In this document: piece by piece, positions 9,260 to 28,305 of the stretch | How positions within the stretch are numbered: the first letter of the stretch is position 1 | Layout of the letters: each line of letters opens with the position of its first letter | Virus record (IMG/VR): IMGVR_UViG_3300044825_002458 | Span: 1 to 60,740 of that record | Reading direction: 5' to 3' (one strand) | DNA from: a virus | Taxonomy: Duplodnaviria; Caudoviricetes | Length of the DNA: 60,740 nt | Notes under the pieces: model-generated | Databases searched by the model: none | Seen by the model: only the letters and a program-made list of their open reading frames with translations | Told to the model about the DNA's origin: nothing | Position numbers and translations under genes: made by a program

Positions 9260-9475
9260 TCACAGGTCATCTCCTTTGATTTCTCTTACGTGCTCTTGAG
9301 AACTGATTGGATTGGTAATGAGAGTATGGCCATTGTGCATAGCCCACCACGCGGTCTTCGCGATGAACTGCCTACCAAGGGAGTTTGTGAACTCAACCTT
9401 AGTCTGGCGGATCAACTCATTATGGGAGTTGTAGACCCTCAGCCTAACAAAGATTGGATTACGCTCCGACATTTG
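9260..9475 (-). CDS. Hypothetical protein
   Basis: MSERNP.. start after GGAGG; coupled ORF; start approximate. Confidence 0.5.
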   Translation of the reverse strand, partial: QMSERNPIFVRLRVYNSHNELIRQTKVEFTNSLGRQFIAKTAWWAMHNGHTLITNPISSQEHVREIKGDDL

Positions 9476-9659
9476 ACCTCCAGTACTCAATGACAATCGC
9501 AACGATTACCGCTGCGATCATGAACCCCATAGAAACTAGGTTGACCACATCCACAAAGTTCAACAGCTGATGCTTCCACATCAAGTAGAAGGCTCTACCG
9601 AGGGCCGAAACTGCAATCAGCCCGGCTACTACGGTGGTAATCAAAGTGGTGAGAGTCAC
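9459..9659 (-). CDS. Small two-TM membrane protein
   Basis: Two hydrophobic helices. Confidence 0.55.
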   Translation of the reverse strand: MTLTTLITTVVAGLIAVSALGRAFYLMWKHQLLNFVDVVNLVSMGFMIAAVIVAIVIEYWRSNVGA

Positions 9660-10582: not shown

Positions 10583-10896
10583 GACCGTTTAGCCTCCGCT
10601 TTCGCGATTTCGTCCTTGATCTGGTTAATCACTCGCTCACAGCGGTGATACGTAAGTGTGACTACCAACATGTCTACACATGATGCCCAAAGCTTAGACA
10701 TGAGCTTCCTTGCTTCGTCGTCTTCAGCTTTGTTGACCATCTCCATCACAGCGTTCCTCAACTCAATGACCAGTGATGCCCCCGTAGGTGACAACCAGAT
10801 ATCGAGTCTATTGTTGAGGTTCATCCGGTGACCCTCTTGAAGTGTCTCGAACGTCACCTTCTTGAGCCTCAAGACCGCTAGATCGGTTGTGCTCAT
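10579..10896 (-). CDS. Hypothetical protein
   Basis: ATGA-coupled ORF. Confidence 0.6.
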   Translation of the reverse strand: MSTTDLAVLRLKKVTFETLQEGHRMNLNNRLDIWLSPTGASLVIELRNAVMEMVNKAEDDEARKLMSKLWASCVDMLVVTLTYHRCERVINQIKDEIAKAEAKRS

Positions 10897-11522
10897 TTTG
10901 CCCCTCCCTTGTGACCGAGCTTCCTTAGCTTGGCCCTGATCTTCCTCTTCTCCGAGGCATCCGTCGACTGTCGAAGTTGGTTAACCAACGTCTCGACATC
11001 CCCACTCATCGGAGCCCTCGAGGTTTCTACTTTCTTGGCGGTTGCCTCGAGGTGATAAGCCTTGGCAATGACCTGTCGATCTTCCTCGCTCAATTGAGTT
11101 CGTTCCAACCTGTCGGTCGTGAGCCGTTCACGATTCAACTCTCTCATTATTGGACCTACCTTGTAGATTAGTTCGGCCATGGTTGTTGAGAAATCCTCGC
11201 GCATCGGAGGATACTTGGTACCACCGCCTGCTTCAGCGACCTTAGTACCTAGTGCGGTTAATTTGAACGCTAGCCTGTTCCCCGCCCACTTCCACTGCAT
11301 GATGAGCTTCTTGGCCTTCAGCGCACCGAGCGCCTTCTCGAACCCTTCCCTCTGTTCTTGCAGTGGGCGATTGATCCAAGGATTCGGTAAGAATCCAAAA
11401 CGGGGCTCACCGAACTCAATCTGGCGGATCCCCTTGTTCCCATAGTAGCCGAGGAACATCATCAAGCTATGCTGAGGTTGTGACAACCCTAGTCGCATCG
11501 CGAGAGAGGTATCAGCGTTCAT
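10893..11522 (-). CDS. Putative winged-helix-like protein with C-terminal RKIRAKLRKLGHKGG module
   Basis: ALGALKAKKLI..FKLTALG resembles a MarR/PadR-type wing; shared C-terminal motif. Confidence 0.6.
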   Translation of the reverse strand: MNADTSLAMRLGLSQPQHSLMMFLGYYGNKGIRQIEFGEPRFGFLPNPWINRPLQEQREGFEKALGALKAKKLIMQWKWAGNRLAFKLTALGTKVAEAGGGTKYPPMREDFSTTMAELIYKVGPIMRELNRERLTTDRLERTQLSEEDRQVIAKAYHLEATAKKVETSRAPMSGDVETLVNQLRQSTDASEKRKIRAKLRKLGHKGGAK

Positions 11523-11586
11523 TCAGATTATCATAGCGTTGGCATTTTGAAAGTCGAAGCCGAAATCGACAATTTCAAAGCCTACG

Positions 11587-11614
11587 AAAAAGCCCCACTT
11601 TCGCGGGGCCTTTT
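11587..11614 (-). terminator. Rho-independent terminator
   Basis: - strand GCCCCGC-GAAA-GTGGGGC-TTTTT downstream of 11649..11870. Confidence 0.8.
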
Positions 11615-11648
11615 CATCTCAGACGGTGCCGGTTTTACCGGCGATCAG

Positions 11649-11870
11649 TCACTTGCCTTCCTTGCGCAGGCCACCGGTGTGTCCGCGCGCACGGAGCTTC
11701 GCGCGCAGGCGACGCTTCTCGTCCGCGTCGGTCGCCTCCTCGAGCGTGGCGAGCAGCTGGTCGACGGTGCGCTCGTCACGGGGACGACCCGGCGAACGTG
11801 CCTCGTCCGACTTCGCGCTCTTCTTGGTCTTCGGGGACTTCTCGGCGGTCTTCTTGCTCTTCTTGGCCAT
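11649..11870 (-). CDS. Small basic histone-like protein with AT-hook-like PGRPR and RRLRAKLRARGHTGG module
   Basis: Lys-rich N-terminus, strongly biased codons, own promoter and terminator. Confidence 0.75.
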   Translation of the reverse strand: MAKKSKKTAEKSPKTKKSAKSDEARSPGRPRDERTVDQLLATLEEATDADEKRRLRAKLRARGHTGGLRKEGK

Positions 11871-11927
11871 TGGTATTTCTCTCGGGGTTTGGGTCAGATG
11901 CTTGGGGAGGAGTTCCCCGTTGCGATG

Positions 11928-11963
11928 AGTTGAAGTATAGACTGAGGTCTCGTTACTTCAACT
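11928..11963 (-). promoter_or_regulatory. Sigma70-like promoter overlapped by a 10-bp inverted repeat
   Basis: - strand TTGAAG-16nt-TATACT; AGTTGAAGTA(11928-37)/TACTTCAACT(11954-63). Confidence 0.6.
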
Positions 11964-11971
11964 ATTAAAAT

Positions 11972-14071
11972 CTAGAACCCCGCAACTTTTTTCAATCGCT
12001 TCGACCATTGGATAGTCTTAGTACCCTCGACGAGTCTATTCGACCTAGCCAGCTTAATCGCCTCGTCAAGGTCAATGCCGACCTCCTTGGGGTCGACCTT
12101 CTGTGACCATCGCTTGATTACCACCTCAGCATCGACAATGATCGGCATGAAGAAGTCAGTATGGTTCTCCATTAGCCTGATGATGGTGGGTACCAGTACT
12201 CTCTGCTCAGACCTAACCATCTCAATGACCAGCTCGTCATGCACCGTCAGGATGACTCTTGACTTGTATCCGCCCTTCCTCAACATGTAGGCAATATCGA
12301 CCAAAGCTCGTTTCATCAAATCCGCTGATGTGCCTTGACAGTCATAGTTCAGGCCCTTGTATGCAAACCTGACAGGTATGTGGTACCGCCTACCGAACGG
12401 ATTTCGAATGTATCCATTACGGGACAGCTCGACCTTCAGATTGTTGGTGGTTCGTCGAACGCTGGGGAACTCATCATGGTATACTGACAACCACGACCTA
12501 GTTTGATCAGCCGTGGTCGGGAATCCATCCCTTGTCATTGTCTCCGCCAGTGTGTCGGCGCCCGATCCATACAACGGACCGAAGTTGACCTTCTTAGCGC
12601 GCTTTCGCTGCTCGTCAGTAACATCCTCCGGCCGACATCGATTGATCTTACTTGCAGTGTGGCGGTGGATATCGTTCAGGATGGCTTTCACCATCTTTGG
12701 GTCTTGGGCGAAGTGTGCGAACAGCCTCATCTCGACTTGTGAATAGTCGAAGTGCCAGTGGACTCGCCCCTTTCGGGGAATGAAGCATTCACGAGGCCCC
12801 AGCAATCTTGGCATGTTCTGAAGATTGGGCTCGGATGACGAGAACCTCCCCGTCTTGGCTTCAGCTTGATTGAACGAGCAGTGGATAATACCAACTTCTC
12901 GACCACTCGGCTCAACCTCAACATCGGTAGCCATTTGAAGCATGTTATCGTAGTATGTGCTAACCATCTTCGATAACTCGCGGAACTTCAATACGAACGG
13001 AGGGAGCAATTCACTCGTACTCAGCTTGTTAACTCTAACCGCCTTCTTGACCTCTCGATAGAACTGAGGGAATAGCCACCCTTTCTCGCCAGATTCACGG
13101 ATAACCGATTGAAGAGGTGGACTGACATACTGGATCATGGCGTACTCGTCGAACGACCATCGACCGCCGCCCCTCACCTGACCAGACTTGTCTTTCTTAG
13201 GCTTAGTTCGATGCTTAAGCTCGATACCAACCTTGTTGAACGCAGCCTCCATTTGAACAGGGCTACCAGGGTTGAACGACTCGATCTCGAGCGGTATTTG
13301 AACTTTGACCTTTTCCCCCTTTACTCGCTTGGTCTTGTTCTTCATTATCGTGAGCTTACCCACGACCTTATTCAACTGGTCTTTCAGCTTAGCCACTCCA
13401 ATAAGTGACCTCTCCCTCAGTTGCTTTACTCGAGTCAAGTCGATAGGGACACCTCGATCTTCCATATCGACACAGTCGAACATCAGCTGTTGCTCAGTTC
13501 GATACAACGCTTCACACGTCTCTCTGATTCTACTTCGGAAAATCTCGTAGAGATAGATTGTAGATTCGACGTCCCACAGGTTACGACGTTGAACGATCTC
13601 GATTGGGGCATCGCTGAAGTTAGGTGCCCTACCATGTTCGAGCATGAAGCGACGCCGATTGGCTTTGAGCCATTCGATGATCTCGTCCTTATCACCCGGG
13701 TCCCTATCCGCGAACCGAATAGCCAACGATCGGAGGTCGTGGTTTGGCAACAGCGAGTTAACAAGCTTGCTTTGAATCAGTGTGCAGTGAGTCCTCGCTC
13801 GAGGAAACTTTACACCCTCAACGCCAAGGAACTTGATCTCGGTCTTCATGTTGTGACCGACGAACTCGTTACTTGTGTTACTTACCTGGCGATTCAGCCA
13901 CTCGATCGAGCTCGGTGTGATTCGAGTAAACCCGTATTCACCCTTGTTGGTGAAGAAGCTGAAACAGAAGGCTCTGTTGCCCTTATAGACGTTAAGGCCG
14001 TTTGTCTCTACGTCAATAGCGACGATACGACCATGAAGATCGGGGAATTCACATGCTTCAGTACCTCGCAT
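11972..14071 (-). CDS. polA: DNA polymerase family A with 3'-5' exonuclease
   Basis: ExoI DVETNG; TGRFSSSEPNLQN; motif A DYSQVEMR; motif B RKRAKKVNFGPLYG; motif C TVHDEL. Confidence 0.95.
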   Translation of the reverse strand: MRGTEACEFPDLHGRIVAIDVETNGLNVYKGNRAFCFSFFTNKGEYGFTRITPSSIEWLNRQVSNTSNEFVGHNMKTEIKFLGVEGVKFPRARTHCTLIQSKLVNSLLPNHDLRSLAIRFADRDPGDKDEIIEWLKANRRRFMLEHGRAPNFSDAPIEIVQRRNLWDVESTIYLYEIFRSRIRETCEALYRTEQQLMFDCVDMEDRGVPIDLTRVKQLRERSLIGVAKLKDQLNKVVGKLTIMKNKTKRVKGEKVKVQIPLEIESFNPGSPVQMEAAFNKVGIELKHRTKPKKDKSGQVRGGGRWSFDEYAMIQYVSPPLQSVIRESGEKGWLFPQFYREVKKAVRVNKLSTSELLPPFVLKFRELSKMVSTYYDNMLQMATDVEVEPSGREVGIIHCSFNQAEAKTGRFSSSEPNLQNMPRLLGPRECFIPRKGRVHWHFDYSQVEMRLFAHFAQDPKMVKAILNDIHRHTASKINRCRPEDVTDEQRKRAKKVNFGPLYGSGADTLAETMTRDGFPTTADQTRSWLSVYHDEFPSVRRTTNNLKVELSRNGYIRNPFGRRYHIPVRFAYKGLNYDCQGTSADLMKRALVDIAYMLRKGGYKSRVILTVHDELVIEMVRSEQRVLVPTIIRLMENHTDFFMPIIVDAEVVIKRWSQKVDPKEVGIDLDEAIKLARSNRLVEGTKTIQWSKRLKKVAGF

Positions 14072-14463
14072 CCGGCGTCCCTCAATAAGTTTCGGCCTTC
14101 GGGGTCTCGGTAGTCATCTAAATAGACTACCCTTCTGATACCTCGTTGAATTATACGCTGCGCGCACATTATGCACGGTGAGTGAGTTGAGATCATGGCC
14201 AAATTAGTCTCAACACTACGAGCCCTAAGAATTGCGTTCTCCTCTGCATGAAGACACATGCATGCTCCTTGAACACCAGTGCACCGATGGCGTGGGAGTC
14301 CCTTGGCCGGCCCGTTGTAGCCGATCGACACAACTTGTGTCAGATCGGCGGTAGTGATTATCGCACCCACCTTGGTTGGGCGATTGCAGGTCGATCGACT
14401 GCTCCACAATAGCGCAGTGACCATGTGGAGCTCAAGTCGAGTCGGACGTTCATCAGAAGACAT
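14008..14463 (-). CDS. dCMP deaminase (ComEB-like)
   Basis: RSTC.R..VGAII, GYNG, HAEENA, SPCIMC zinc motifs. Confidence 0.92.
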   Translation of the reverse strand: MSSDERPTRLELHMVTALLWSSRSTCNRPTKVGAIITTADLTQVVSIGYNGPAKGLPRHRCTGVQGACMCLHAEENAILRARSVETNLAMISTHSPCIMCAQRIIQRGIRRVVYLDDYRDPEGRNLLRDAGCEVLKHVNSPIFMVVSSLLT

Positions 14464-15250
14464 TGCGATCCTTCAAGTCTCGTCGATATGCATGTAGAGA
14501 GCCAGTGAAGTAGGTGAACGTGCCGATCTTCAGATCCAGCTCTGACGCGACGAGGTCTTGGAACATCATTGCCAACAAGATGTCGACCAGGAAGTGAGTC
14601 AACAGGTCGCACGACCTCATCGTGTAGATCAAGTCGACCGCCCCTTCTCGCGACAACAGTTGGTAGTACATCGAGCAAGGGATTCGGCCAACACCCCCCG
14701 CAAGGTTCTGGTCCTGAGACAGTTGAATGTCCAGCCCATCCCCTCCGTTTCGATACACCGGTGCGGATGGCACAGACAGTCCGTTGAAGATCGAGATGAT
14801 GCACTGGCGACTGTCGGCATTGTCCCTCAGTCGTCGCAAGACCGGCTTGAGTTGCGGTACGATACGTTCCGAGTAGGTGTAGTGGAACTTACCCTCTTCG
14901 TCACAGAAGTCATTCCACACCGACTGTCGGTGCTTCGACGAGTTCCCCGGATTGAGCGGGCGATTGCGATAGAAGCGATCATGGAACTCCTCGGTGATGT
15001 AGTTGTAGACCTCATTGACTTGTTCTTCACCGATCAAGTAGGCCACCAGCGAGGTAATCTGAAACTGAGTGACTATATCTCGGCTACCACTGATCTGGAA
15101 CCCATAGGCTCGAAGCTCCTTGGTAGTGAACTCTTCGGGGTCGGTAGCGACCTTGTTCTGCATGCTGGAGGGACGGGTAATGATACCCATCTCCCAGAGG
15201 TCTCGTTCGACTTCGCGGACCGCTTCCTTGATGTTCTGATAGATTCGCAT
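14453..15250 (-). CDS. Thymidylate synthase-family enzyme, probable dCMP (hydroxy)methylase
   Basis: YTYSER, SRQ, RIPCSMYYQ, MRSCDLLTHFLVD, GSLHAY; Asp at the ThyA N177 position. Confidence 0.85.
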   Translation of the reverse strand: MRIYQNIKEAVREVERDLWEMGIITRPSSMQNKVATDPEEFTTKELRAYGFQISGSRDIVTQFQITSLVAYLIGEEQVNEVYNYITEEFHDRFYRNRPLNPGNSSKHRQSVWNDFCDEEGKFHYTYSERIVPQLKPVLRRLRDNADSRQCIISIFNGLSVPSAPVYRNGGDGLDIQLSQDQNLAGGVGRIPCSMYYQLLSREGAVDLIYTMRSCDLLTHFLVDILLAMMFQDLVASELDLKIGTFTYFTGSLHAYRRDLKDRNVF

Positions 15251-16149
15251 CAGACTGCCTTTTCGAAGCCCAGAGCTTCGACTTTGAGGGTTGGTGGAAC
15301 GTTCTTCTTGCTGTGACCCATATGCTCCATCCAGCGGCGTTTGATCCGCTTGAATGGGCCGTACTTCTCGTGGCTGAGCATGTCGTTACCGTGCTCCTTG
15401 TATGCCTCAAGGATCTTCAAGTACCAGATGGTCATGTGGTACCAGGTGGGGCTCATCGAACTACGCTTCTTTTTGAGCCCCTCCCTACCGAGGTTCGCGA
15501 GCGACTCAAGCTCCTTGAACAGGTGTTTCTTCGAAAACACATACGGGAGGGTCTTGAAGCAGTGAAGCTGCTGAGATGTGATGAACCACCGGAATGCGAT
15601 GTCGCCCTCGTACCCGCTCTTCTTGGCGATCGCTGCCGCAATCCGATTAGCGATTGCAGCATCGAGCAGGGCCATGTAGCCCATGTATGTGGTCCTCGAG
15701 TAGATCGTGAGGCACGGTGAGTTCGGATCCTTCGGGGATCCCCGGAATGTTGCTCCCATGAGACATCCGCCCCATCGATGCTTCTTCGCGTATCGATCCG
15801 GGTCTCGGAACATCATGTTCGCAGTGGCACCTTGACGAGACTCGCCCGTCACGATTTCCACTGCCTGATCGATGAATCGACTCAGCGGCTCGAGGGGCAC
15901 ATACTCACGAATGAGGCGACTCCACCGCGACCGATTGAGCCACAACTCACGACCTACGTCGAGGTCGAACTTGTAGTCCGGAGTGTAGAGGCAAGTGTGA
16001 TAGAGGTGGGTCTCGATGTTGAGGACTGCGTCCGGCGCAGGGAGGTCGATATGGCCATCGACGGCATTGCTCATCAGCTCGGTCATATCCGAGCCCTCAA
16101 TGAACCACATGCCGTATCGATGGTCAAAGTTACTGTATGCGGTTCCCAT
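15250..16149 (-). CDS. Divergent second thymidylate-synthase-fold protein
   Basis: HRWGGCLMGATFR...LTIYSRTTYMGY..LD...RWFITSQQLH parallels TS PC..R..MRS.D..SLH; start at 16149 coupled to the upstream stop. Confidence 0.55.
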   Translation of the reverse strand: MGTAYSNFDHRYGMWFIEGSDMTELMSNAVDGHIDLPAPDAVLNIETHLYHTCLYTPDYKFDLDVGRELWLNRSRWSRLIREYVPLEPLSRFIDQAVEIVTGESRQGATANMMFRDPDRYAKKHRWGGCLMGATFRGSPKDPNSPCLTIYSRTTYMGYMALLDAAIANRIAAAIAKKSGYEGDIAFRWFITSQQLHCFKTLPYVFSKKHLFKELESLANLGREGLKKKRSSMSPTWYHMTIWYLKILEAYKEHGNDMLSHEKYGPFKRIKRRWMEHMGHSKKNVPPTLKVEALGFEKAV

Positions 16150-16898
16150 CAGTAGTTGCTCCGTTGGCGAAACTGATTGACCGCATGCTTCTTGTGGTAG
16201 AAGATGAAGACATCCTTCATGCTGAGCCCCATGAACGAGATGATTCCAAAGAGCTCGTACCAGGCCGCCAGGAACATGGATCGGAACATCGCCGCGTCTG
16301 TGGCCATCTGGGATTGCTTCCACGGCTTGTTCTTGAGTGTGTTGGCGGCAAGCCCCAGATACCGGATCGTATTCCACAGCATACGATCACATGCAACCGG
16401 ATCGGACGCCACCGCCTCGGGATTCAATGACCTACGGAGCGTCGAAGTCGCGGTGAGCCCGCTTCGTTCGAACGACTTAGTCGCCATCCGAGCTACGTCG
16501 GTCGGCGAAACCATCGCGATGATGGATGCCTCGGTCATGAAGTGAACGGCATCGATCAGTTCTTCTACGCAGTGGCGGAAGCTCGATGAAGTGCCTTCCT
16601 CCACTTCACCGTATGTCGGATAGAACTCGAACGCTTCGGCCAACTCCTCAGTGGCTCGCCAGAACATGTCCTTCAACCGAGCTTGGACTTTGGAATCATC
16701 GATCGAGTAAGCCGGCCACTGGATGTCGGACATTGAAATGGCGTATTCGCCAACCTTGGTTGGAATCACCGCCCCATTACGAGCCTCAATGGGCTCGTAC
16801 TTGTGGATCAAGGCCATCTGGCCTTCGAAGATCTTGACTACCATCTCGTAGTCGGTGACCGGGATGTTGAGAGGGTTTTCCACGTCGTCGATGTTCAT
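16149..16898 (-). CDS. All-alpha (MazG/dimeric dUTPase-like) dNTP pyrophosphatase, possibly dCTPase/dUTPase
   Basis: EELAEA...EELIDAVHF, LKNKPWK, YHKKHAVNQFRQ.SNY motifs. Confidence 0.8.
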   Translation of the reverse strand: MNIDDVENPLNIPVTDYEMVVKIFEGQMALIHKYEPIEARNGAVIPTKVGEYAISMSDIQWPAYSIDDSKVQARLKDMFWRATEELAEAFEFYPTYGEVEEGTSSSFRHCVEELIDAVHFMTEASIIAMVSPTDVARMATKSFERSGLTATSTLRRSLNPEAVASDPVACDRMLWNTIRYLGLAANTLKNKPWKQSQMATDAAMFRSMFLAAWYELFGIISFMGLSMKDVFIFYHKKHAVNQFRQRSNY

Positions 16899-16901
16899 GG
16901 T

Positions 16902-17357
16902 TCACTTTCCTTGTTCAAGCATTGCCGAGCCGAGTACACAGTACCCGACGATATCGGTAAGGGTGTCTACGATGGACTCATTGAGGTTGTTAGTCGATGG
17001 GTTCTTGCTGAGGTTCTCGAATCGATCGACCTTGCTACCGATCCGCATGAACATACCCGCGTGACCCCACTTAATCAGTCCGCTGTCGCCGTATGCGATA
17101 TGCTTGCTCATCAACATATTGGCGAACTCACTCAAGTCGAGCATATCGCCCGACTTATTCAATTGCGCCAGAGCCAGTCGAGCAAGCTCGCAGTAGTATT
17201 TCCGAAACATCTGACGAGTTGATGTCCCCGCTCTGATCTGCTCAGAGATAGAGTCAATCGCCATCGTCAATGTGTGCAGTGGAAATATCACCGCCTCACA
17301 TCCCGCTTGGAGGTCCCAGAAAGTTTTCTTGATGTAGTCGATGTTTGGCAACAGCAT
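16902..17357 (-). CDS. DUF1599 / nucleotide-modification-associated domain protein
   Basis: KHIAYG......G..GM.MRI.SKVDR.ENL......ESI.DTL.DI.GY motif. Confidence 0.75.
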   Translation of the reverse strand: MLLPNIDYIKKTFWDLQAGCEAVIFPLHTLTMAIDSISEQIRAGTSTRQMFRKYYCELARLALAQLNKSGDMLDLSEFANMLMSKHIAYGDSGLIKWGHAGMFMRIGSKVDRFENLSKNPSTNNLNESIVDTLTDIVGYCVLGSAMLEQGK

Positions 17358-17358
17358 G

Positions 17359-20208
17359 TTACTTCTTCCTTTTTGCCTTGGTTCGATTCTGTTCGAATTC
17401 CCCGAGCCATTTGATGAACTCGGGATTCACACTATACTGAGATCCCCGGATGTGATTAACCGCGCGGTGACTGACCAGTGTGCTAAGCAGTCGGCGCGCG
17501 ATCATTGGATCACCGCTAGTCACGTTGGCCAGTGTATCGGGTGAAACCTCAGACACCGACCCAAGCAACATCAGCAGTGACGTATCGTTGGACAACAAGT
17601 CATCGAGCTCCCTAGCGAGCTTCTCTTTTTCCCGAATACCAGCTTGAGTCGAATATCGATCATAGCCGGCAGTAGGTTTCGAGTAGAAGGTGTCGATCAA
17701 CATGGAGGCGTATTTGACGTGCTCTTGTTTCACGATGAGCTTTTCGCCGCTCTTGTCGCATGAGTAGACGCGCGCAGCGATTGCTGCTGCAATCTTAGCG
17801 ATTTTGAATCGAATGTTAGCTCCCTGGATGAGAGGGATATCGCATGCTGGGTATTTCTCCATCAAGAAGATAGATTCTTCAGTGATGGTCTTTAGAGCTA
17901 CGTCGGTGAACTTGATCTGATCTTCAGTCCTAGACCATGCCCACAGTATGAGGTTCCTGAATGCCTCCACATCGAACTTATCGCTGTCGTCGGTGTTCGG
18001 TATGGTGAAGGTATTGATCTCGTCAGTGTTTACCTCATCATCGCCAATGAACAAAATGTAGTCGAATCGACGGATGTCTTCGACTGCTCCGATTAGTTCC
18101 TTGGCCGCTACTACACCATACGGGTAAGACGAGAGCAATCTACCAGTCCTTGTATTTGAGAGCCAGATCATTCGAGTCAATGCCTCGGCTCGATCATTAC
18201 GGACTTTTGTTGACTCCGCCACACCCTCGCTTCGGATTCGAGTCAACTTGCCGATGTCATTCACAGACATTGAGCTCATCTCGTCGATTAGCACCAGTCG
18301 ACCATTATTCATGGGTAACAAGCCCCACCGAATGATCCACTGCTTTCCGATGGATTCAACCGCTGCAACAAGACCGGCGTATGTCGACCCCTCACCCGAT
18401 GCTACTTGGCCTAGTCCATAGTAGTCAAGCAATCCCTCAGCGATTGACCCCTTACCCGTCGCTGAGTCACCGAGCACCAGGATATCGAGCATACCACGCT
18501 TGAGCCTCATCCCATTCAACGAGAAGCTCTTGACCGAATGGAATACAAGGTCAACGGATATATGGAGATCGGACCTACCTGGGATCTTGGTGATGTTCCT
18601 CCACTGCCAGTCAGCAATCTCCTTGATCTTTTCTTCTAGTGAGTTGTTACTTGAGACTGAGAACAGCGCTGATAGTCGTTTGCGATCGCGTGGGCTCAAC
18701 TCGAACGCTTCAACATCGGTCATGCTGATTGAAGCTCGAGGCGCAACGATTGATGCCAGCTGATTGTTCGGATCGGGTAGTACTCGACCCTCAAATGTGT
18801 ACTCTCGAGTCGGTAGTGTTCCTAAGTCGGCAGGGACTAGTGTGTTCGCAGTGACGTGGCGCCTATGACCAGATCCGATGGCGGGATTCAAGATGAGCTG
18901 AGTCAAGTACTGCCTAGATACAACCTCAACCTGACACCCGCACTCCGGCGTAGCGAACGAGAACCCAGCTTTGTTCTTCAGCTTGGTCATTATGGACGAT
19001 TTGCTCCCGCCCACATATTCCAAGAAGTCAAGCTCGTTCGGGGTAATGGTTACTTCTTTGAACTCATGATCCGTGTCTTGCATTGGGCACGTATCACAGG
19101 TCTTCTTACAGGACACACGTGCGGTATGTGGTACGACAAACGGAGTCATTGACTCGCCTGCAATACGAGCCTTGAACTTAACCTCTCGTTCGATCAAGGA
19201 GCTGTCGCTGACGACGATATCGAGCGGAGCCTCTCGAACATCTTGATCTACCACCGAGTCCGGGTTCTCGAGTTCAGGCTGAAGCTTGTCCATCTTAGCT
19301 TCCCAAGCATCGGCGGACCGCATCAGCTCGGACCCCTTCATCCAGTCCGATACGTCTTTGCCAGCATGCTTTGGAATCTTGATCCGGTATACCGCTTTAG
19401 CGATCGACCGAAGGGCCTTTAACGGTCGAGTCCAGAACCTATTACCGTCTTTGTCGTTGTCGTAGGCAATAACCACATCTAAGCCGCGGAAGTCTTCGTT
19501 GTACTCGTCGTTCCATGACTTGACTCCCGCGGTGCACGTTATCGCTGCAATACCAATGGATATTAGAGCAAGTGTGTCCCACTCACCTTCGCAGAGAACA
19601 ATGCGCCCATTACAAGTCTCCTTGGCCATAGCAAAGGAGGAAAATGGATACAGCTGTGTCGGTGACCCGAATGATCGACTTTCATTTGGGTCACGGTAGT
19701 TAATCATCTTCGGGCGACCCTTCGCCTTGGCGTCAACATCGTATTGCTTGGTGTTGATGACCTGTCCCCACCGGTCGTAGATGGGGAACACAATACGGCG
19801 GCCGTTGTATCCGAGGTTCATTCGGTCTCGGACTTCGTCGCTGACCATTCGACCTTCGATGTAGCTCTTCATCGGTTGACTCTGAGCTAACAAGCGCTTC
19901 CACTGCCTTACCTTCCTCGGTTCGATCGTCGGGTGGATGAACTCAGAGTAGATCTGGCTAGCCGCATCTTCGTGGCTTACCTTGTTGGCCTCGCTGTGGA
20001 ATTTGACGATCGATCTTCCCGCAGCGGAACAGCCATGGCAATAGAATGCACCTGTGTCCTTATTCAGATGCAAACTTGGAGTCTTCTCGCTATGGAAGAC
20101 GCACAGCACTCTAGCTTCGATTGCGTCTGGCCATCGGATCTCACCGAACACCCTCGAGTAGTATTCAGAGGGCGAAACTTTCTTACGGACGTAATCAGCG
20201 AGGCTCAT
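17359..20208 (-). CDS. Primase-helicase fusion: CHC2 zinc finger + TOPRIM + MCM-like AAA+ helicase
   Basis: CVFHSEKTPS..FYCHGC; LCEGEWD and AYDND; LDILVLGDSATGKGS, GLVAAV, LIDEMSSM, RRFD. Confidence 0.88.
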   Translation of the reverse strand: MSLADYVRKKVSPSEYYSRVFGEIRWPDAIEARVLCVFHSEKTPSLHLNKDTGAFYCHGCSAAGRSIVKFHSEANKVSHEDAASQIYSEFIHPTIEPRKVRQWKRLLAQSQPMKSYIEGRMVSDEVRDRMNLGYNGRRIVFPIYDRWGQVINTKQYDVDAKAKGRPKMINYRDPNESRSFGSPTQLYPFSSFAMAKETCNGRIVLCEGEWDTLALISIGIAAITCTAGVKSWNDEYNEDFRGLDVVIAYDNDKDGNRFWTRPLKALRSIAKAVYRIKIPKHAGKDVSDWMKGSELMRSADAWEAKMDKLQPELENPDSVVDQDVREAPLDIVVSDSSLIEREVKFKARIAGESMTPFVVPHTARVSCKKTCDTCPMQDTDHEFKEVTITPNELDFLEYVGGSKSSIMTKLKNKAGFSFATPECGCQVEVVSRQYLTQLILNPAIGSGHRRHVTANTLVPADLGTLPTREYTFEGRVLPDPNNQLASIVAPRASISMTDVEAFELSPRDRKRLSALFSVSSNNSLEEKIKEIADWQWRNITKIPGRSDLHISVDLVFHSVKSFSLNGMRLKRGMLDILVLGDSATGKGSIAEGLLDYYGLGQVASGEGSTYAGLVAAVESIGKQWIIRWGLLPMNNGRLVLIDEMSSMSVNDIGKLTRIRSEGVAESTKVRNDRAEALTRMIWLSNTRTGRLLSSYPYGVVAAKELIGAVEDIRRFDYILFIGDDEVNTDEINTFTIPNTDDSDKFDVEAFRNLILWAWSRTEDQIKFTDVALKTITEESIFLMEKYPACDIPLIQGANIRFKIAKIAAAIAARVYSCDKSGEKLIVKQEHVKYASMLIDTFYSKPTAGYDRYSTQAGIREKEKLARELDDLLSNDTSLLMLLGSVSEVSPDTLANVTSGDPMIARRLLSTLVSHRAVNHIRGSQYSVNPEFIKWLGEFEQNRTKAKRKK

Positions 20209-20242
20209 GCTTTCACGTTGACTCCGACCAGTTCAAAGTAAA

Positions 20243-20424
20243 GCACCGCTGCCCCCGACGTAATGGCTCATGGGATTCGATATACCCCCAGGTCAAGGGG
20301 GTCGAGTATGGACGTGGGCGCGGCTACCAGAGCGTTTTGGTCTTACCACATCCACACGACGAGATTGCTCGTCAGGCCATGAGCGCTCGACCGGTCAGAA
20401 TCGTTACGTCGAGAGCAGCGGTAC
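20243..20424 (-). ncRNA. Putative structured RNA (multibranch) between the SSB and primase-helicase genes
   Basis: 21-bp outer stem, 8-bp second stem, 12-bp inner stem and further hairpins; mismatches on + become G-U pairs on -. Confidence 0.65.
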
Positions 20425-20465
20425 AAGTATCAAAGAGCGATTGTCCCAGTCGGTGGCTAGAAGGG

Positions 20466-21542
<1,077 letters not shown>

Positions 21543-21545
21543 TTG

Positions 21546-22316
21546 CTAGCCCTTGTTGGTTTGGGTTTGGAACGTGTTGTAGAACGCCTTGCCGTCCAGA
21601 CGCTCCAAGCCATCTGGGCGGTTTCGACGAGTTCGGTCTTTAGCGTATACCGCCTCCGAAGGTTGCGTAACCAGGGTGCGGATCTCGATCGGCTTTCCGT
21701 TCTTCTTGGCGCGAGAGAATCCACAGTACCCCGCCACAGATACCAACGGAACGATCACCTTCCATGCGCTCTTGCCCATGTCAGGCATCGTTCGATCGGT
21801 CTCGATGATGCGCGTCTTGACGGTTTTGATCGTCTCGTGGGCGATGAAGACAATCCCCGTATCCAACGCCTTCAAGCGCCCGAGGAACGTCAAGAGCTCT
21901 TTCTTGAATGCTCGCCAGCCCTTTGCAAACCCCGCATCGCCCAACGAGTCGATGCCGAGCTTCTTGCATACGTAGTCTTCGGCGGCATTCGCCCAGTCAT
22001 CTACGTGGTCCACAGCAATGATGTTGTACTTCGGCGAGTCCTTCGACTCGAGAAGCTCCAGGACCTTCAAGAAGTCCAACCATGTCGAGCACTCGATCGC
22101 CATGGTCTTCAAGTGTCGTGTGCCTCGATCCGTGGACATGAAGAGGACGTTATCGTCCATATCGTTCACGAAGGTCGTCTTCCCCACACCGGGCGGCCCA
22201 TAGAAGAGCATCACTTCGTCTTTCGGGCCGCGGGACTTGATCGACTTTTTCGTCGGCAAGTTCGAGATGGAGCTTTTTGCTCCGAGTGGCTTCTTGAGCC
22301 GAAGTGCCTGTTTCAA
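21546..22316 (-). CDS. Sak4-like AAA ATPase / annealing protein
   Basis: FYGPPGVGKTT, TDRG, IAVDH, VFIAHE, YAKDR. Confidence 0.85.
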   Translation of the reverse strand: MKQALRLKKPLGAKSSISNLPTKKSIKSRGPKDEVMLFYGPPGVGKTTFVNDMDDNVLFMSTDRGTRHLKTMAIECSTWLDFLKVLELLESKDSPKYNIIAVDHVDDWANAAEDYVCKKLGIDSLGDAGFAKGWRAFKKELLTFLGRLKALDTGIVFIAHETIKTVKTRIIETDRTMPDMGKSAWKVIVPLVSVAGYCGFSRAKKNGKPIEIRTLVTQPSEAVYAKDRTRRNRPDGLERLDGKAFYNTFQTQTNKG

Positions 22317-22395
22317 AGGGAAGCTCCTGTGTCAGTCAGAACGCGATCGACAATAACGAATGGCAGTTACAATTGCACGTTCTGAGAAAGAATGG

Positions 22396-22647
22396 TTAGA
22401 CCTTTGACCTGATCCGGTGGTTAAGTTCAGTCATCCCACAGACTGAACATACCGCATTCCCATCGATGACCTTGAACTGGTGACCGCATCGATGAATGTA
22501 GCCGAAAGCCAGCGAAGCCACCAATGTGGAGGCTTCAAACTTCGGCCTATCACCGATAAACCCGCATGAGCATTCACACTCGGTGGTCATGACCTTGGCC
22601 TGATCCCAAATCGCTGCGAGGTCAGAGAGTCTAGATTGTCGGCTCAT
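22396..22647 (-). CDS. Small Cys-rich (Zn-ribbon) protein
   Basis: CECSCG, CGH, CSVCG. Confidence 0.55.
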   Translation of the reverse strand: MSRQSRLSDLAAIWDQAKVMTTECECSCGFIGDRPKFEASTLVASLAFGYIHRCGHQFKVIDGNAVCSVCGMTELNHRIRSKV

Positions 22648-23740
22648 CTCCAAGCTCCCGGTGCATCGACTCGATTTGCGTAAGACCGAGCGATGTCCCC
22701 TTGTCGAGACCTCTTGTGCAGAGGTCGTGATACTCACACATCTTGAAGTAGGCATTACAGTGAGAGTCGTTGGTATACCAGGCATTAGGCTTCGTTACGA
22801 AGCTTGTGTTACAGAACTCAGTAAACTGGGCATGAGTCAGCAAGAGATTCAAGCAGAACTCAGCCAACTGAGACCGAGTGAACTGAATCCTCTCGCGGTA
22901 GAAGTACTTGCTTGGCTGAGAGGTGTAGTCTGCAATAACCCGATCCCTGAACTCAGCCAACGGTTCGTTGCTCTTTCGCCTGAGCTTAGACTTTTGGGTC
23001 ACGTTGTAGACAATGCCCGATACTGGTTCTTCGGTAAGCATACTCAGGGCCAATTGATACCCTTGGATCTGAGTGTCCAAAGCCAGCCGTTGGATGTACT
23101 CGGGGGTGATGAGCGAAGCGGTCTTATGCTCGAGGCCCCAGTTCGTCTTCTTCTCCCTGAAGACACCATCGATCGACCCCGCATAGAAGAATGGACCCAT
23201 GTCGATCAAGAACTGGCGCTCGATGCCGATGTCTCGATCGAAATCCCACACCTCGCGATCACCCTCGTAGATCTTCGCATATCCATTGAGCATACCTTCG
23301 AAAGTGTTGACCTGCATCTCCATCTTCACTGCATCTTCTTCATCGAAGAGCGCCGCGCTTGTTCTCATCACTTCGGTGAGTTCCTTCATGGCCATGGTAG
23401 TGATCTTGGCCATAGACGACTTCTTCGACTTGTACCACTTGCCAAGGCACTCGTGGAACTTAGTACCTACGGCCAGCGCGGGCGATCCAACTCGAGGCAC
23501 TAGCCTCATCAGATACTTCCAGAAGAACTTCCGCGGACACTGCCTAAAGAGTTTGACGGATGAGGCCGTCCAGATCATCTTTTCGGGGATGATGACCTCA
23601 CCATCAAACGGATTGTGGATGATGAGCCTTCGTGTCTCGGGTGGAAGCTTAGCATTGAGCTTCTCAAGGAACTTGCTCGATGCCTTAGCGGACACGACAT
23701 GCGTATCGGCTTGAAGCCCCAGTTCAATTGGATTGACCAT
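22631..23740 (-). CDS. PD-(D/E)XK (RecB/Cas4-like) exonuclease
   Basis: QCPRKF, GTKFH, IE, GSIDG, EHKT, QIQGY, C....MCEY..LC. Confidence 0.88.
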   Translation of the reverse strand: MVNPIELGLQADTHVVSAKASSKFLEKLNAKLPPETRRLIIHNPFDGEVIIPEKMIWTASSVKLFRQCPRKFFWKYLMRLVPRVGSPALAVGTKFHECLGKWYKSKKSSMAKITTMAMKELTEVMRTSAALFDEEDAVKMEMQVNTFEGMLNGYAKIYEGDREVWDFDRDIGIERQFLIDMGPFFYAGSIDGVFREKKTNWGLEHKTASLITPEYIQRLALDTQIQGYQLALSMLTEEPVSGIVYNVTQKSKLRRKSNEPLAEFRDRVIADYTSQPSKYFYRERIQFTRSQLAEFCLNLLLTHAQFTEFCNTSFVTKPNAWYTNDSHCNAYFKMCEYHDLCTRGLDKGTSLGLTQIESMHRELGDEPTI

Positions 23741-24087
23741 CAGAATGGCTCCTCAATCAAGTAGTGCTTCATGGTGTCGATACCCTTTGCGGTACTCACT
23801 TCGCGAGCACTACGGATGATTCTGAACTTACGCTGGTTGAACCAGACTGGTTGACCATCGCTCATGTCGGTCTTGAAGTGGAAGTTGAACTGGGCCACTT
23901 CGATTTCGCCACTCGGATACTCCTTCAAGAAGCGAGTGATTTTGACACCGCTCTTCCGTTCGTAGTGTCGGAGGATTGCGTCGATGGTTTCGCCGCACGG
24001 TTCGCCATGCACACAGGGGAACGGGCTAACACATTCACCGTTAGGCAGGATGAAGCAGTTGTCTCGGATCTCTTTGAACTTGGTCAT
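23740..24087 (-). CDS. Hypothetical protein
   Basis: ATGA-coupled; ECVSPFPCVHGEPC. Confidence 0.55.
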   Translation of the reverse strand: MTKFKEIRDNCFILPNGECVSPFPCVHGEPCGETIDAILRHYERKSGVKITRFLKEYPSGEIEVAQFNFHFKTDMSDGQPVWFNQRKFRIIRSAREVSTAKGIDTMKHYLIEEPF

Positions 24088-24515
24088 TGGTTTGGTTTGT
24101 GGGGAGTTGGCCAGATGTATGGGAGATTGTTTGGCTCGACCCATCCGTATCGACCGTACCAGGTTGGGTCTTTTCGCAGGAGGTTCGATCGATGAGAACT
24201 GTGGAAGTCTTCGTAGAAAATCCACCAGGGCAGCTCAATGCGATCGGGTAAGTCGAACAACTTCATGGTGTTTCGAAAACCTCGCCTACACCACTCGACG
24301 ATCGCTAAGTTGTGATAGAGCTTCAGCGCGTCCAGCTTACCATCCCACATTATCCTAGCCGGGTGGTTTGCCCAACCTTTGACTACCTCACCCGATTGGA
24401 TCTTGATAGTGGCGTTAACAAGCTGCATGGCCTCTACTCTTTGTTTGCCCAGCCTCTTGTTGTCGAGCGATTCGACCGATCGACGGAAGCACGGGTATGG
24501 TAGAAACGTTTGCAT
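24084..24515 (-). CDS. Pyrimidine-dimer DNA glycosylase-like protein (MSMEG_6728/DenV-related)
   Basis: MQTFLPY..F..S...LD.KRLGKQRVEA.Q, NHPA..MW, H.SHRSNLLRKD..WY, PYIWP. Confidence 0.9.
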   Translation of the reverse strand: MQTFLPYPCFRRSVESLDNKRLGKQRVEAMQLVNATIKIQSGEVVKGWANHPARIMWDGKLDALKLYHNLAIVEWCRRGFRNTMKLFDLPDRIELPWWIFYEDFHSSHRSNLLRKDPTWYGRYGWVEPNNLPYIWPTPHKPNQ

Positions 24516-25924
24516 TACTTGAACAGGTCTTGTGGTCGTTGACCGAGCCGTAGTTGTTTGAGGATAAAGTCAGCCAGATCTGTCTTCTGACGGACAGACT
24601 CCAGTGACTTCAAGTCAGGTGAACCCTCAGTCACAAGATCATAGTAAGTGATAGAACGATGCTTCTCAGATCCAATTCGTCTGATTCTTCGTTCTGACTG
24701 CAGCCTTGACATAACGCGATCGCTGTGAGAATAGTAAATCGCGGTATCGGCTACAATCAGCTCGTTCATCCCAATGCCCGAATCAGCCTGGCCTATGAAC
24801 ACTCGGACTCTCGGATTGTCTCGGAATTGTCTCCTTGCCTCATCCTTCTGATCCTTCTCCTTACCGTAGAACCGGACATTGCTCACTTTCGCCTGACTCA
24901 GCGTTTCACTGATCTTGTCGATCTCCGCAGTGAAGGCCGCCCAAACCACTATTTTCTTCTTCCTTGCAAGTTCGTTCTTGATGAGGTCAATCAGCAATGC
25001 CATCTTTGAACACTTGAGGTATTCAGGCTTACCCCGAGCTTTACCCTCTACCTTAGGAGGGTATACGAAGCCCCCTGCAATATGCCTAAGCTTAGACAGC
25101 TTGACTATAACGTGGTCGATGTCGAATGATCCGCCTTTGAACTCGTACTCCCATTCTTCAATCACCTTCTTAGCCCTTCGGCTTTGTTCAGGCGTCATTT
25201 CCACTGACCTCATCAGCCTACGAACCGGCGGTAGTTTCAGAACGTCGTCCTCATGGACATGGAACGCGATTGTCGATAACAGTCGGGGAATCGTTCGATG
25301 ACTTTCGCTCTTGACTATCCACATAGGCGGAGCCGGAGGCCTTAGCTTGATGAAGAAGCGGTTCATGAACGACCACCAACTAGTACCGAACGTATGACCG
25401 CCGTCTATCACCATCGCCTGTGACCAGATGTCCTCCCATGCGTCGTTAGTGAGAGGTGTACCTGACAACACAAGTCGCCTAGGAATTCGCTGACTGATCT
25501 TGACCACCGCTTTGGTCTGAGCAGCTTTCCACCTCTTGATGAACTGTGACTCATCCGTTATCAAGCAATTGGCATCGAACTCGATAGCTTGATCTTTACT
25601 AGACCTAGCCCGCCCATACGTCAACATGAGCCACTTGGTCTCAGGCGGCATCTTCTTCCAGTCCTTTGGACTTTCGATTCGATGGATGCGTGAAGCATCC
25701 TCACCCTCTCGCTCAAGCTCGGACTCCCAGGTCAAGAAGTCATCACGACGGCAGATGATCAGGACCCGCTTAAAGGACCTTGCATATCGAATCGACAGGA
25801 TGGTCTTGCCCGTACCGGGGGCCATGAACACACCCGCTCGACCTCTTCGCTGAATAATAAACTTCAGCGCATCCTGCTGATACGGCTTTAGCTTCCGATA
25901 TCCTTCAACAGCCTTGACTTCCAT
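24515..25924 (-). CDS. SNF2-like helicase
   Basis: PYQ, GTGKT, DESQ, LSGTP, GIGMN, QSERRIRRIG. Confidence 0.9.
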   Translation of the reverse strand: MEVKAVEGYRKLKPYQQDALKFIIQRRGRAGVFMAPGTGKTILSIRYARSFKRVLIICRRDDFLTWESELEREGEDASRIHRIESPKDWKKMPPETKWLMLTYGRARSSKDQAIEFDANCLITDESQFIKRWKAAQTKAVVKISQRIPRRLVLSGTPLTNDAWEDIWSQAMVIDGGHTFGTSWWSFMNRFFIKLRPPAPPMWIVKSESHRTIPRLLSTIAFHVHEDDVLKLPPVRRLMRSVEMTPEQSRRAKKVIEEWEYEFKGGSFDIDHVIVKLSKLRHIAGGFVYPPKVEGKARGKPEYLKCSKMALLIDLIKNELARKKKIVVWAAFTAEIDKISETLSQAKVSNVRFYGKEKDQKDEARRQFRDNPRVRVFIGQADSGIGMNELIVADTAIYYSHSDRVMSRLQSERRIRRIGSEKHRSITYYDLVTEGSPDLKSLESVRQKTDLADFILKQLRLGQRPQDLFK

Positions 25925-26892
25925 TTACTAACCTTGGGCTTTACCTTGAACTTGGTAACAAAGTTGGCCACGCTCATCATCTCACGAGTGGCTTTACCCG
26001 CGAATCGATGGAACTTTGGGTTTATCAGTGTACCGTCCGGCTCAATGCGTTCAGCCCTTACTTCAACTTTCCTCCCCCGTAGGACGTTGATGTTGTCCAT
26101 CTCAGCCAGCAGCTGAGGCATGTCCGGTGGGAACTTGGTCACTTCCAATTTGAACCTATCCATCGATACCACGATCGATCGGATATACCCGCCAGACGAA
26201 TAGGTCCACTCGACTACTTTACCGAATACCGAGACAAATGGCTTTACTAGGTAAGCTCGTGAACCGCCCTGATCGTGTTTGAGAACCCAGCCCTCGATAC
26301 CCATCTCGAGGGCTTCTTTCTCTAGGTAGTTACGTCGATCGGCCACCGTGGATAGCCGCTGGAATTGAACCATGCGCTTCACGGGAATAGCGAACATGGT
26401 CGGGAACTCAAGCGAGCTTAGCTTAGATAGTCCTGCAGTGGGTGACTCCCACAGGAGTGAATTACCATCATAGTAGGGTAACCCGACCGACCATATCTGG
26501 AAGTCGTTGCCGGATTTTCGAGCTTCAGCCGCAACCCGTCGTGAGAACCCGGGTACCATCAGTATACCCTCAACTGCACTCTTTGGTGGTATACGGTCCT
26601 GGATCATTTTGTACCATGGGTGGTTTACGAAATGCGGGAATCGGTAGGTGTATTCGAAATCATCGTCTACCTTATCACCAAGCACCGCAATACGACCCGA
26701 CGGCTGAACCCATGCAGTGACCCGAATTCCTGTTGCCCATTCCTGGATCACCGATGACATGCCTAGCGCCTGACCGGCCCACAGTTTTATCCGAGGCCAT
26801 TCGATAGCCCAATTGGATAGACCGGGCAAAGGCCTAAACTGTGGAACGGCCTGTGAGATAGGCCGTATCACTGAGCCCCGCCTCCAGGACAT
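25888..26892 (-). CDS. Degenerate ATP-dependent DNA ligase-like protein
   Basis: Motif IV EGWVLK, motif V-like VKP, OB-fold GRKVEV......G.L.NPKF.RF; motif I reads QEWATGIRV with no Lys. Confidence 0.65.
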   Translation of the reverse strand: MSWRRGSVIRPISQAVPQFRPLPGLSNWAIEWPRIKLWAGQALGMSSVIQEWATGIRVTAWVQPSGRIAVLGDKVDDDFEYTYRFPHFVNHPWYKMIQDRIPPKSAVEGILMVPGFSRRVAAEARKSGNDFQIWSVGLPYYDGNSLLWESPTAGLSKLSSLEFPTMFAIPVKRMVQFQRLSTVADRRNYLEKEALEMGIEGWVLKHDQGGSRAYLVKPFVSVFGKVVEWTYSSGGYIRSIVVSMDRFKLEVTKFPPDMPQLLAEMDNINVLRGRKVEVRAERIEPDGTLINPKFHRFAGKATREMMSVANFVTKFKVKPKVSKWKSRLLKDIGS

Positions 26893-27146
26893 TACTGACG
26901 AGCGCTCCGGAAGTTGATGATCCGGACAATCTTCCCGATGGTAGCCGTTGAGTATCCCATGATCGACGCGATCCTCGCCTGAGTGAAATGGGGTACGAGG
27001 GCCTCAACTAGCCTGACGGTCGACTCGGGAACCGGCCGGCGAAAACTTGCAGACATCTCGAAGTCGCCGGGCTTGTAGCAGTACTTACGCTTCCGCTTCG
27101 GCCGGTTGCTGTTGATGTAGAACGACGCTTCACGGGTTTTCTTCAA
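26892..27146 (-). CDS. Small HTH protein
   Basis: FTQARIASIMGYSTATIGKIV helix-turn-helix. Confidence 0.7.
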   Translation of the reverse strand: MKKTREASFYINSNRPKRKRKYCYKPGDFEMSASFRRPVPESTVRLVEALVPHFTQARIASIMGYSTATIGKIVRIINFRSARQ

Positions 27147-27355
27147 CTTGGCATCTCCATTGATTGTTGATTATCGGGAGGTGATGGTTTTTCGAACTCC
27201 GGTCTAATGCCGGTTAGTTCTTGCAGCAGATCAGAGAACACCTTTGTGTTGGTGTTCACCCCTTCGATTAGTTCATCGAGAGATTGCTGTAGTTTATCGA
27301 TTCTGCGATTGAAGTCAGCCGCATATTTCAGAAGTTCATGTTGGTGGTAACTCAT
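27143..27355 (-). CDS. Hypothetical coiled-coil protein
   Basis: Coupled ORF. Confidence 0.55.
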   Translation of the reverse strand: MSYHQHELLKYAADFNRRIDKLQQSLDELIEGVNTNTKVFSDLLQELTGIRPEFEKPSPPDNQQSMEMPS

Positions 27356-27963
27356 GTGAGTAGGTTATCAGCGGATTTGGCTTTTTCAATGAGAGCGTCA
27401 CGGTCAGAGGCTTTTACTGACCTCATCAACGAGGTAACTAGTTGTTCGACTGGGCCAATCTCACCGATGATAGACCCGTAGAAGTTGATTGTGGGGATCT
27501 CATCCCATTGGGCCGCCACTGTTCCCCATGGGTGACCTGGTGATTTTATTGCCGGGTGGTCGGTCAAGGCGTTCAGGTCATACACAGTTCGCCATACGCC
27601 ATCTCTATGGAACGTGAGGTAGAACATGGCCGAGTCCCTTCGTAGGCCGTATTCAACCACACAATAGTTCGCTTGCGGCAACTTCCCATACTTGGCAAAA
27701 TGCGCAGTGATCACGGCTTGTAGGCCGCAGGGCGCAAATAGGTAACGATGCCATCGCTTGTATGCCAACAGCCTACATGCAAGGCCCATGTGTTCGACTA
27801 TCTTACCTCGAGTCGCTGATGATACGTTGAACTCTTCACCGGCTCGGTAGTAGAGCTCGGATGTTCCTGGCGTATGGTTGCGAATCACCCACTCATCTGG
27901 GGATCGCATGGCTTCTATCAGCGCATCGACTCGAGGATAGTACGTCATTTGGCGAGTCCCCAT
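27352..27963 (-). CDS. Hypothetical protein (first gene of the leftward operon)
   Basis: 203-aa ORF next to the divergent intergenic region. Confidence 0.6.
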   Translation of the reverse strand: MGTRQMTYYPRVDALIEAMRSPDEWVIRNHTPGTSELYYRAGEEFNVSSATRGKIVEHMGLACRLLAYKRWHRYLFAPCGLQAVITAHFAKYGKLPQANYCVVEYGLRRDSAMFYLTFHRDGVWRTVYDLNALTDHPAIKSPGHPWGTVAAQWDEIPTINFYGSIIGEIGPVEQLVTSLMRSVKASDRDALIEKAKSADNLLT

Positions 27964-28022
27964 GTTATCACATTTTTTCGCCCTGTTCAGTTCGCTGTTC
28001 GAAAATGCGAGCGTTTTTCGCG

Positions 28023-28209
28023 TATCATCGTGCGCGCGCGGGAGTCCCCCTCACGAATACACACGAACGAACACGCCCCACAAACCCCCATACTATACCC
28101 CTATAATACTATACTATACCATAATATATCTATCTATCTATCTATCTACTACAAACAAACAAACAAACAAACAAACTAGAGCGCTTCTCAGCGCGCGCGC
28201 ACGATGATA
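28023..28209. repeat. 18-bp inverted repeat enclosing (TATC)5, (ACAA)6 and a 103-nt G-free tract; candidate origin/control region
   Basis: TATCATCGTGCGCGCGCG 28023-40 / CGCGCGCGCACGATGATA 28192-209; no G on + from 28076 to 28178. Confidence 0.75.
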
Positions 28210-28305
28210 TGAAAAATACGCTTGACTAATTGGCATTTGAGGGCGGCATTAGGATTTTGCTAAAATAGCGGCGTATTTCGAAGGGGAGTCAGATATACTA
28301 CGGCA

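Follow-up and report, generated by a model that had tools for sequence, protein, structure and literature searches.

What occupies the 257-nt gap between the gene for a single-strand DNA binding (SSB) type protein and the gene for a primase-helicase in a phage replication operon whose flanking minus-strand genes lie 1-3 nt apart or overlap, and what might it do there? The gap (20209-20465) belongs to a virus record of 60,740 bases, estimated to be 97% complete, the whole of which was analysed and is referred to here as the window. A 172-nt direct repeat at the two ends of the record (1-172 and 60569-60740, 99% identical) makes the genome look complete with terminal redundancy, though the record is classed as 'linear'. 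The phage ORFs include those of a large terminase, a portal, a major head protein and a tape-measure protein, the last of which indicates a long-tailed phage and not a phi29-like one. A scan of 20 large ORFs brought up no RNA polymerase gene. Primase identity to the closest cultured phages is 31% at most, and near-identical DNA is present in metagenome runs from freshwater, wastewater, digesters and activated sludge (10 rows from 6 studies, 2 of them possibly the source); no RNA sequencing run is listed as containing the stretch with the element.

The gap lies in a minus-strand block of replication and recombination genes that encode a helicase, a PD-(D/E)XK nuclease, an AAA_24 ATPase, a DUF669 protein, a primase fused to an MCM-type helicase, a dUTPase, a thymidylate synthase and a family A DNA polymerase. 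The next gaps in this block (11972-27963) measure 79 nt (22317-22395) and 45 nt, and the first-pass annotation was right to call the gap unusually large for a tight operon: it is the largest between neighbouring genes in that part of the block. Its identification of the flanking genes also agrees with their PF and PHROG matches. Upstream lies the gene for a DUF669 SSB-type protein with a long acidic repeat (20466-21542, minus strand; PF05037, E 1.2e-5; phrog_6015 'single strand DNA binding protein', E 7.7e-5), and downstream the gene for a primase with a zinc ribbon and Toprim domain fused to an MCM-type helicase (17359-20208, minus strand; PF01807, PF13155, PF00493), whose alignment with relatives begins at residue 1-2. 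A published study (PMC13687109) describes a DUF669 protein as an SSB working with an AAA partner, which is the same gene pair as that found upstream of the element. Near its C-terminal end the DUF669 protein carries the long Asp/Glu-rich repeat, encoded at 20650-20900 by an 18-copy repeat of 9/12 nt; this may be an acidic tail as in other SSBs. On the plus strand, a 77-aa ORF at 20270-20503 is absent as a called gene from the protein collection.

A branched fold on the operon strand

Fold energies were computed with RNAfold and compared with those of 200 dinucleotide-preserving shuffles. Read as RNA, the minus strand of 20243-20424 (182 nt) has a minimum free energy (MFE) of -94.6 kcal/mol, against -62.2 +/- 4.7 for the shuffles (z -6.83), and none of the 200 was as good. 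The centroid structure equals the MFE structure and contains 65 pairs, arranged as a stalk, a side hairpin and a four-way junction. Every helix that had been proposed by eye for this strand was reproduced by RNAfold and by reading of the sequence, and the prediction that the folding energy would be better than that of dinucleotide shuffles held as well. This confirms that the fold is real: it surpasses chance by a wide margin, and the operon strand is the one that it favours. A 180-nt sliding fold scan was uninformative for it, the frame being too short for a stalk that encloses 182 nt.

The stalk is formed by a 5' strand at 20404-20424 and a 3' strand at 20243-20263, both on the minus strand, which pair without a bulge over 21 bp, three of them G-U; its base is G+C-rich and adjoins a U-rich tail. 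Between stalk and junction stands a 5-bp side hairpin (20388-20403) that is part of the MFE structure and is doubtful as a real feature, as 105 of 200 shuffles fold as well (z 0.19). The inner four-way junction (20266-20384, 119 nt) consists of an 8-bp closing stem (20384-20377 with 20266-20273 in the pair list) and three arms. Arm 1 (20358-20373) has 6 bp and a 4-nt loop (z -5.11, 0 of 200 shuffles as good); arm 2 (20306-20357) has 12 bp, two of them G-U, an internal loop and a 4-bp apical hairpin (z -3.00, 1 of 200); and arm 3 (20277-20305) has 4 and 5 bp with a 7-nt loop (z -1.69 alone). By itself the inner 119 nt reaches -54.1 kcal/mol (z -5.06), a value equalled by none of 200 shuffles, and removal of the stalk's 3' strand leaves its fold unchanged. 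The junction has few unpaired bases, and its loops are not of the GNRA or UNCG type. Two loops share the pentamer UGACC, which we rejected as a motif: it occurs 106 and 111 times on the two strands, in 16 and 20 chance hairpin loops.

When the whole gap is folded, the MFE structure gains an 8-bp outer helix with two G-U pairs, in which a possible 5' strand at 20446-20453 pairs (as 20453-20446) with a possible 3' strand at 20224-20231. The latter covers the first two G of the GGAG that precedes the primase start. In this model structure the outer helix is a lead only and could be due to chance.

The plus strand, read as RNA, gives a poorer fold (-84.6, z -4.80) from which arm 2 is missing. Of the 65 pairs, seven are G-U when read on the minus strand and would be A-C on the plus strand, and no helix of the minus strand is interrupted by A-C. 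The first-pass annotation had taken these pairs as a sign of selection on RNA and not on a DNA cruciform. The argument does tell the two strands apart, all seven imperfect pairs being G-U on the minus one. It does not distinguish RNA from minus-strand DNA in single-stranded form, because G-T pairs form in DNA too. With DNA parameters the minus strand still folds well (-47.2, z -6.03) and the plus strand gives a z of -4.2.

Searches against known families place the fold nowhere. The Rfam covariance models gave no match at gathering score in the whole window and none at E up to 10 in 20100-20600, and ARAGORN found no tRNA or tmRNA gene in the window, in keeping with the earlier remark that the fold was not recognizable as a tRNA, hammerhead or known riboswitch. 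A tRNA-like reading was further set aside on arm lengths and linkers, which differ from those of tRNA. A hammerhead was considered on the ground that CUGACGA resembles its first core strand; five of these seven bases (GACGA) are paired in arm 1, however, and there is neither a helix between the heptamer and the closing stem nor a second core strand after stem II, nor an Rfam match. The paired ends, long stem, branched module and length of 100-180 nt recall bacterial Y RNA (YrlA) and the pRNA of phi29. Unlike these, the element has no Rfam match at E up to 10 and the phage has no Ro/TROVE gene, and the Y-RNA reading was rejected on these two grounds.

The U-rich tail and the same gap in related phages

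Directly after the stalk, the minus strand continues with a U-rich tail, UUUACUUUG (20234-20242), in which six of the first eight bases are U by sequence reading and tail scoring. This tail, overlooked in the first-pass annotation, makes the arrangement directional: its counterpart on the plus strand, which is complementary to the upstream flank, counts only two T among eight bases and is not T-rich. A G+C-rich stalk base followed by UUUACUUUG on the transcribed strand is what an intrinsic terminator would present, and the position fits as well. The element is in sense orientation and starts 41 nt past the DUF669 stop codon, and its stalk and tail sit 34 nt before the primase start codon, at the place where relatives carry hairpins. 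A scan of the gap for the sigma-70 consensus found no sigma-70-like promoter, so the primase gene probably depends on read-through from upstream.

The format is less regular. The helix is not a compact single hairpin; it encloses 182 nt with four hairpin loops, and the U-tract is interrupted (6 of 8). A terminator scan flagged at the element only a 5-bp piece, made up of the last part of the stalk's 3' strand and the tail, and over 7600-27500 the same kind of scan returned 17 sites against 17.3 in shuffles, that is, no excess.

To place the site in a wider context, 160 loci around primase-helicase homologues were gathered, the relatives having about 30-41% primase identity. Two closer primases, 68% and 70% identical, are encoded on Logan contigs. 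The order of DUF669 gene followed by primase gene is kept in 40 of these loci, which comprise 29 unique gaps. Hairpins were counted in the 22 gaps of 30-400 nt, leaving aside five of 0-8 nt and two longer than 400 nt. In 20 of the 22, a T-rich tail comes after a helix of 6 bp or more, compared with a mean of 5.8 and a maximum of 11 in 30 rounds of dinucleotide shuffles; with a helix of at least 10 bp the count is 17 of 22, compared with a mean of 0.73 and a maximum of 2. A stricter script still found a terminator-like hairpin in 14 of the 22. These hairpins lie 8-37 nt before the primase start in most loci, and several of their tails begin much like that of the window (TTTAT.. and TTACTT.., against TTTACTTT).

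The hairpins of the relatives span 17-45 nt, with three exceptions: L006 (61 nt), L084 (70 nt) and a doubtful pick in L009 (113 nt). In L006 (2898-2994) a 12-bp stem surrounds a 34-nt loop and is followed by a T-run, and in L084 (2895-2994) a 7-bp stem surrounds two small hairpins, again followed by a T-run. These two stems are possible intermediate stages toward a branched form. Five of the 29 unique syntenic gaps, those of 0-8 nt, have no hairpin, which implies that the site is dispensable. Since relatives have plain terminator-like hairpins in this position, the simplest reading of the element is an elaborated intrinsic terminator or attenuator and not a free-standing new noncoding RNA. Of the functions suggested earlier, control of the ratio between SSB and primase-helicase fits the hairpins at this site, and the free-standing noncoding RNA is no longer the simplest choice.

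The branched form itself has no detectable counterpart in these relatives. BLAST and nhmmer searches with the element and the gap against the 160 loci found no homologue (the best match, 32 nt antisense at E 0.013, was judged to be chance). A covariance model built from the single sequence, run against the window and 99 of the 160 loci, recovered only the element and, at 29 bits, its reverse strand; it found nothing below E 0.2 in seven further loci chosen by pattern hits (L162-L164 and L165-L168) and no match in 22 whole relative records. The expectation of conservation in relatives thus failed at primase identities up to 41% by BLAST, nhmmer and covariance model alike. Exact-pattern scans of IMG/VR, which may leave out very near records, gave 0 matches for the stalk ends, 3 (attributable to chance) for the closing stem, and 0 each for arm 2 and arm 1, and a search of IMG/VR with a single protein brought up no close relative. 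Plasmids and GenBank phages gave no match to the gap; a search with a wider stretch found one match, of 237 nt and inside the primase gene only.

Run X8, from another study, contains a 12,184-nt contig that covers the whole element at about 92% identity and encodes a primase protein that is 97% identical; an independent contig of this kind indicates that the sequence is real. The only indel within the element is a single A after 20294, in the 7-nt loop of arm 3. The 40 substitutions listed individually all fall in primase codons at 19852-20080, and by subtraction from the tally for the run about 22 more, 19 of them transitions, fall in 20081-20639. Divergence is accordingly about 4% in 20081-20639 and about 17% in the neighbouring 229 nt. 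The low-divergence stretch includes coding sequence on both sides of the gap, so a recombination boundary explains it as well as selection on RNA does, and the uneven divergence across 19811-20639 could be either a mosaic boundary or local constraint. Contigs of three other runs (X4, X7 and X10) end in or beside the element, to which we attach no meaning. On these sequence comparisons, the element appears to be lineage-specific, with no detectable conservation beyond very close kin. A survey of structured RNAs in phages (PMC10690425) describes many candidates that contain terminators and motifs upstream of gp32; the words 'primase' and 'helicase' are absent from the main-text passages searched.

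A proposed elaborated terminator and its alternatives

We hypothesize that the element is a Rho-independent terminator or attenuator in an elaborated form specific to this lineage, that it limits read-through into the primase-helicase gene, and that it is probably an RNase III substrate as well. We give this explanation about an even chance of being correct. In the scheme that follows, it is termination, its efficiency, cutting by RNase III and any role of the inner domain that we infer. Host RNA polymerase would transcribe the recombination genes (PD-(D/E)XK nuclease, AAA_24 and DUF669), and as it entered the gap the 119-nt four-way junction would fold first, by itself. The emerging 3' strand of the stalk would then zip onto the waiting 5' strand while the U-rich tract was being transcribed. 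With the inner junction already folded by the time the 3' stalk strand is transcribed, the stalk could close without hindrance from it. A fraction of the polymerases would be released, leaving an SSB message with a very stable 3' end, and read-through transcripts would carry the primase-helicase and the replication genes downstream of it. The net effect would be to lower primase-helicase expression relative to SSB. The 21-bp duplex is, moreover, of sufficient length for host RNase III, whose cut would separate the two messages and free the inner domain.

The element resembles known intrinsic terminators and attenuators in having a G+C-rich basal helix followed by a U-rich tract after a stop codon. 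It differs from them in size, with 182 nt, four enclosed hairpins and a 21-bp stalk, where the compact hairpins of the relatives take up 17-45 nt. A branched form of this kind is far outside the usual terminator format, and this counts against the terminator reading, as do the interrupted U-tract, the lack of an excess of sites in the terminator scan and the relatives that have no hairpin here. Most likely, an ancestral terminator hairpin gained the inner domain in its loop, either by growth or by insertion. A plain hairpin would suffice for termination, however, so that the order within the inner domain (z -5.06) is left unexplained.

The proposed processing step draws on the stalk. RNase III needs roughly two turns of near-perfect duplex RNA, and the stalk offers a near-perfect, bulge-free duplex of 21 bp, three of them G-U, which by this comparison should make it a substrate of the host enzyme. 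Phage RNase III sites such as those of the T7 early and late regions and lambda sib likewise place a long duplex between two cistrons of an operon, and in the processing stalks of rRNA precursors the stalk is formed, as here, by the flanks of a structured RNA. The RNase III sites of T7 are single irregular hairpins of about 50-60 nt that are cut on one strand. The stalk of the element is unlike them in being almost perfect and in carrying a four-way junction, and its cleavage is a prediction.

If the terminator reading is right, the loop of a terminator inside an operon has come to hold a full four-way junction, and this at the point where, in many relatives, an SSB needed in stoichiometric amounts is balanced against replication enzymes that act catalytically. 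The element would then be a natural test case for how much structure terminator hairpins can carry, and it would suggest that new structured RNAs may arise by growth inside existing hairpins. As an element of a single lineage, it warrants a modest claim.

The unexplained order of the inner domain leads to the first alternative, namely that the 119-nt junction is a working RNA module and the first member to be seen of an undescribed class of phage RNA. We consider this unlikely, though worth serious attention. In one form, a stable noncoding RNA, RNase III would cut the stalk and free a junction RNA of 119-140 nt that acts in trans, perhaps as a decoy or on a protein of the host or the phage. 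In another, a cis-acting domain within the terminator helix could bind a protein or the polymerase and so set the level of read-through, in which case a regulatory RNA would have taken over the terminator stem as its closing helix. An inner domain that is ordered by itself and independent of the stalk (z -5.06, 0 of 200 shuffles as good) is what a freed RNA would need, the 21-bp duplex is long enough for RNase III, and no known RNA family is matched. Against this, no homologue was found in the 160 loci, the 22 records, the IMG/VR patterns, plasmids or GenBank phages; the loops are not of GNRA or UNCG type and few junction bases are unpaired; and the phage lacks partner genes of the kind of Ro/TROVE or a reverse transcriptase. 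A functional inner domain would nonetheless mean a new class of phage RNA.

It is less probable again that the element acts through processing and translational control with no termination involved, cleavage of the stalk or the 8-bp helix in the GGAG region setting the translation of the primase-helicase. The helix 20453-20446/20224-20231 does cover the first two G of GGAG, 13 nt before the start codon, but it is short and includes two G-U pairs. The U-rich tail and the terminator-like hairpins of the relatives point instead to termination, and no RNase III gene of the phage's own was found.

We attach slightly less weight still to an accidental origin, in which a selfish, MITE-like insertion with imperfect inverted ends of 21 nt landed in the gap or in a terminator loop and has no function of its own. 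The element shares its small size and its inverted ends of about 21 nt with MITE repeats of the Correia-like kind, as the arms of the stalk can be read as imperfect terminal inverted repeats, and it is absent from all relatives with primase identity up to 41%. The sequence TACTT occurs at its upstream edge and again 2 nt past its downstream edge, a repeat that is too short to weigh. Unlike such repeats, it is present in a single copy in this phage, and searches of phages, plasmids and representative bacterial genomes found no copies. A degenerate scan for the stalk arms in 185,579 bacterial and archaeal species, each represented by one genome, found no inverted pair, only four isolated matches in apparent coding sequence, where by our own estimate about two were expected by chance. 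Moreover, the imperfect pairs are all G-U on the transcribed strand, and the interior is highly ordered, as a transposon remnant need not be.

A signal at the DNA level, such as an origin, a cruciform or a single-strand hairpin serving the adjacent primase-helicase, would suit the position directly upstream of that gene and the good fold of the minus strand as DNA (-47.2, z -6.03), but is very improbable given a gap that reads as free of iterons and of AT-rich unwinding stretches, a cumulative GC skew without a turn near 20.3 kb, relatives that hold a strand-specific hairpin with a T-tail and no conserved origin, and a better origin or regulatory candidate at 28010-28222.

Features elsewhere in the genome

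A canonical bidirectional terminator (approximately 11585-11625), with a G+C-rich hairpin between an A-run and a U-run, follows the end of the DNA polymerase gene (11972) at a distance of about 350-390 nt. A canonical host-type terminator near 11590-11620 fits use of the host polymerase.

The region 28010-28222, between divergent gene blocks, contains inverted repeats of 31 nt (87% complementary) around AT-rich tandem repeats of CTAT/CAAA, and folds with a z of -4.82. It is a candidate for a replication origin or an early regulatory region.

Within 31244-37163 the motif GTTGTTACTT(G) recurs before several small genes (families D6 and D7). The same region holds a 54-nt repeat at 31340 and 34783 and inverted GTTACGA..TCGTAAC pairs (I14). 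Any of these may be promoters or operators of the phage. In the 180-nt sliding scan, the GC-corrected folding signals are strongest on the plus strand at 35221-36330; they are overlapped by an ORF at 35335-36267, which is without a PHROG match and contains 9-nt repeats.
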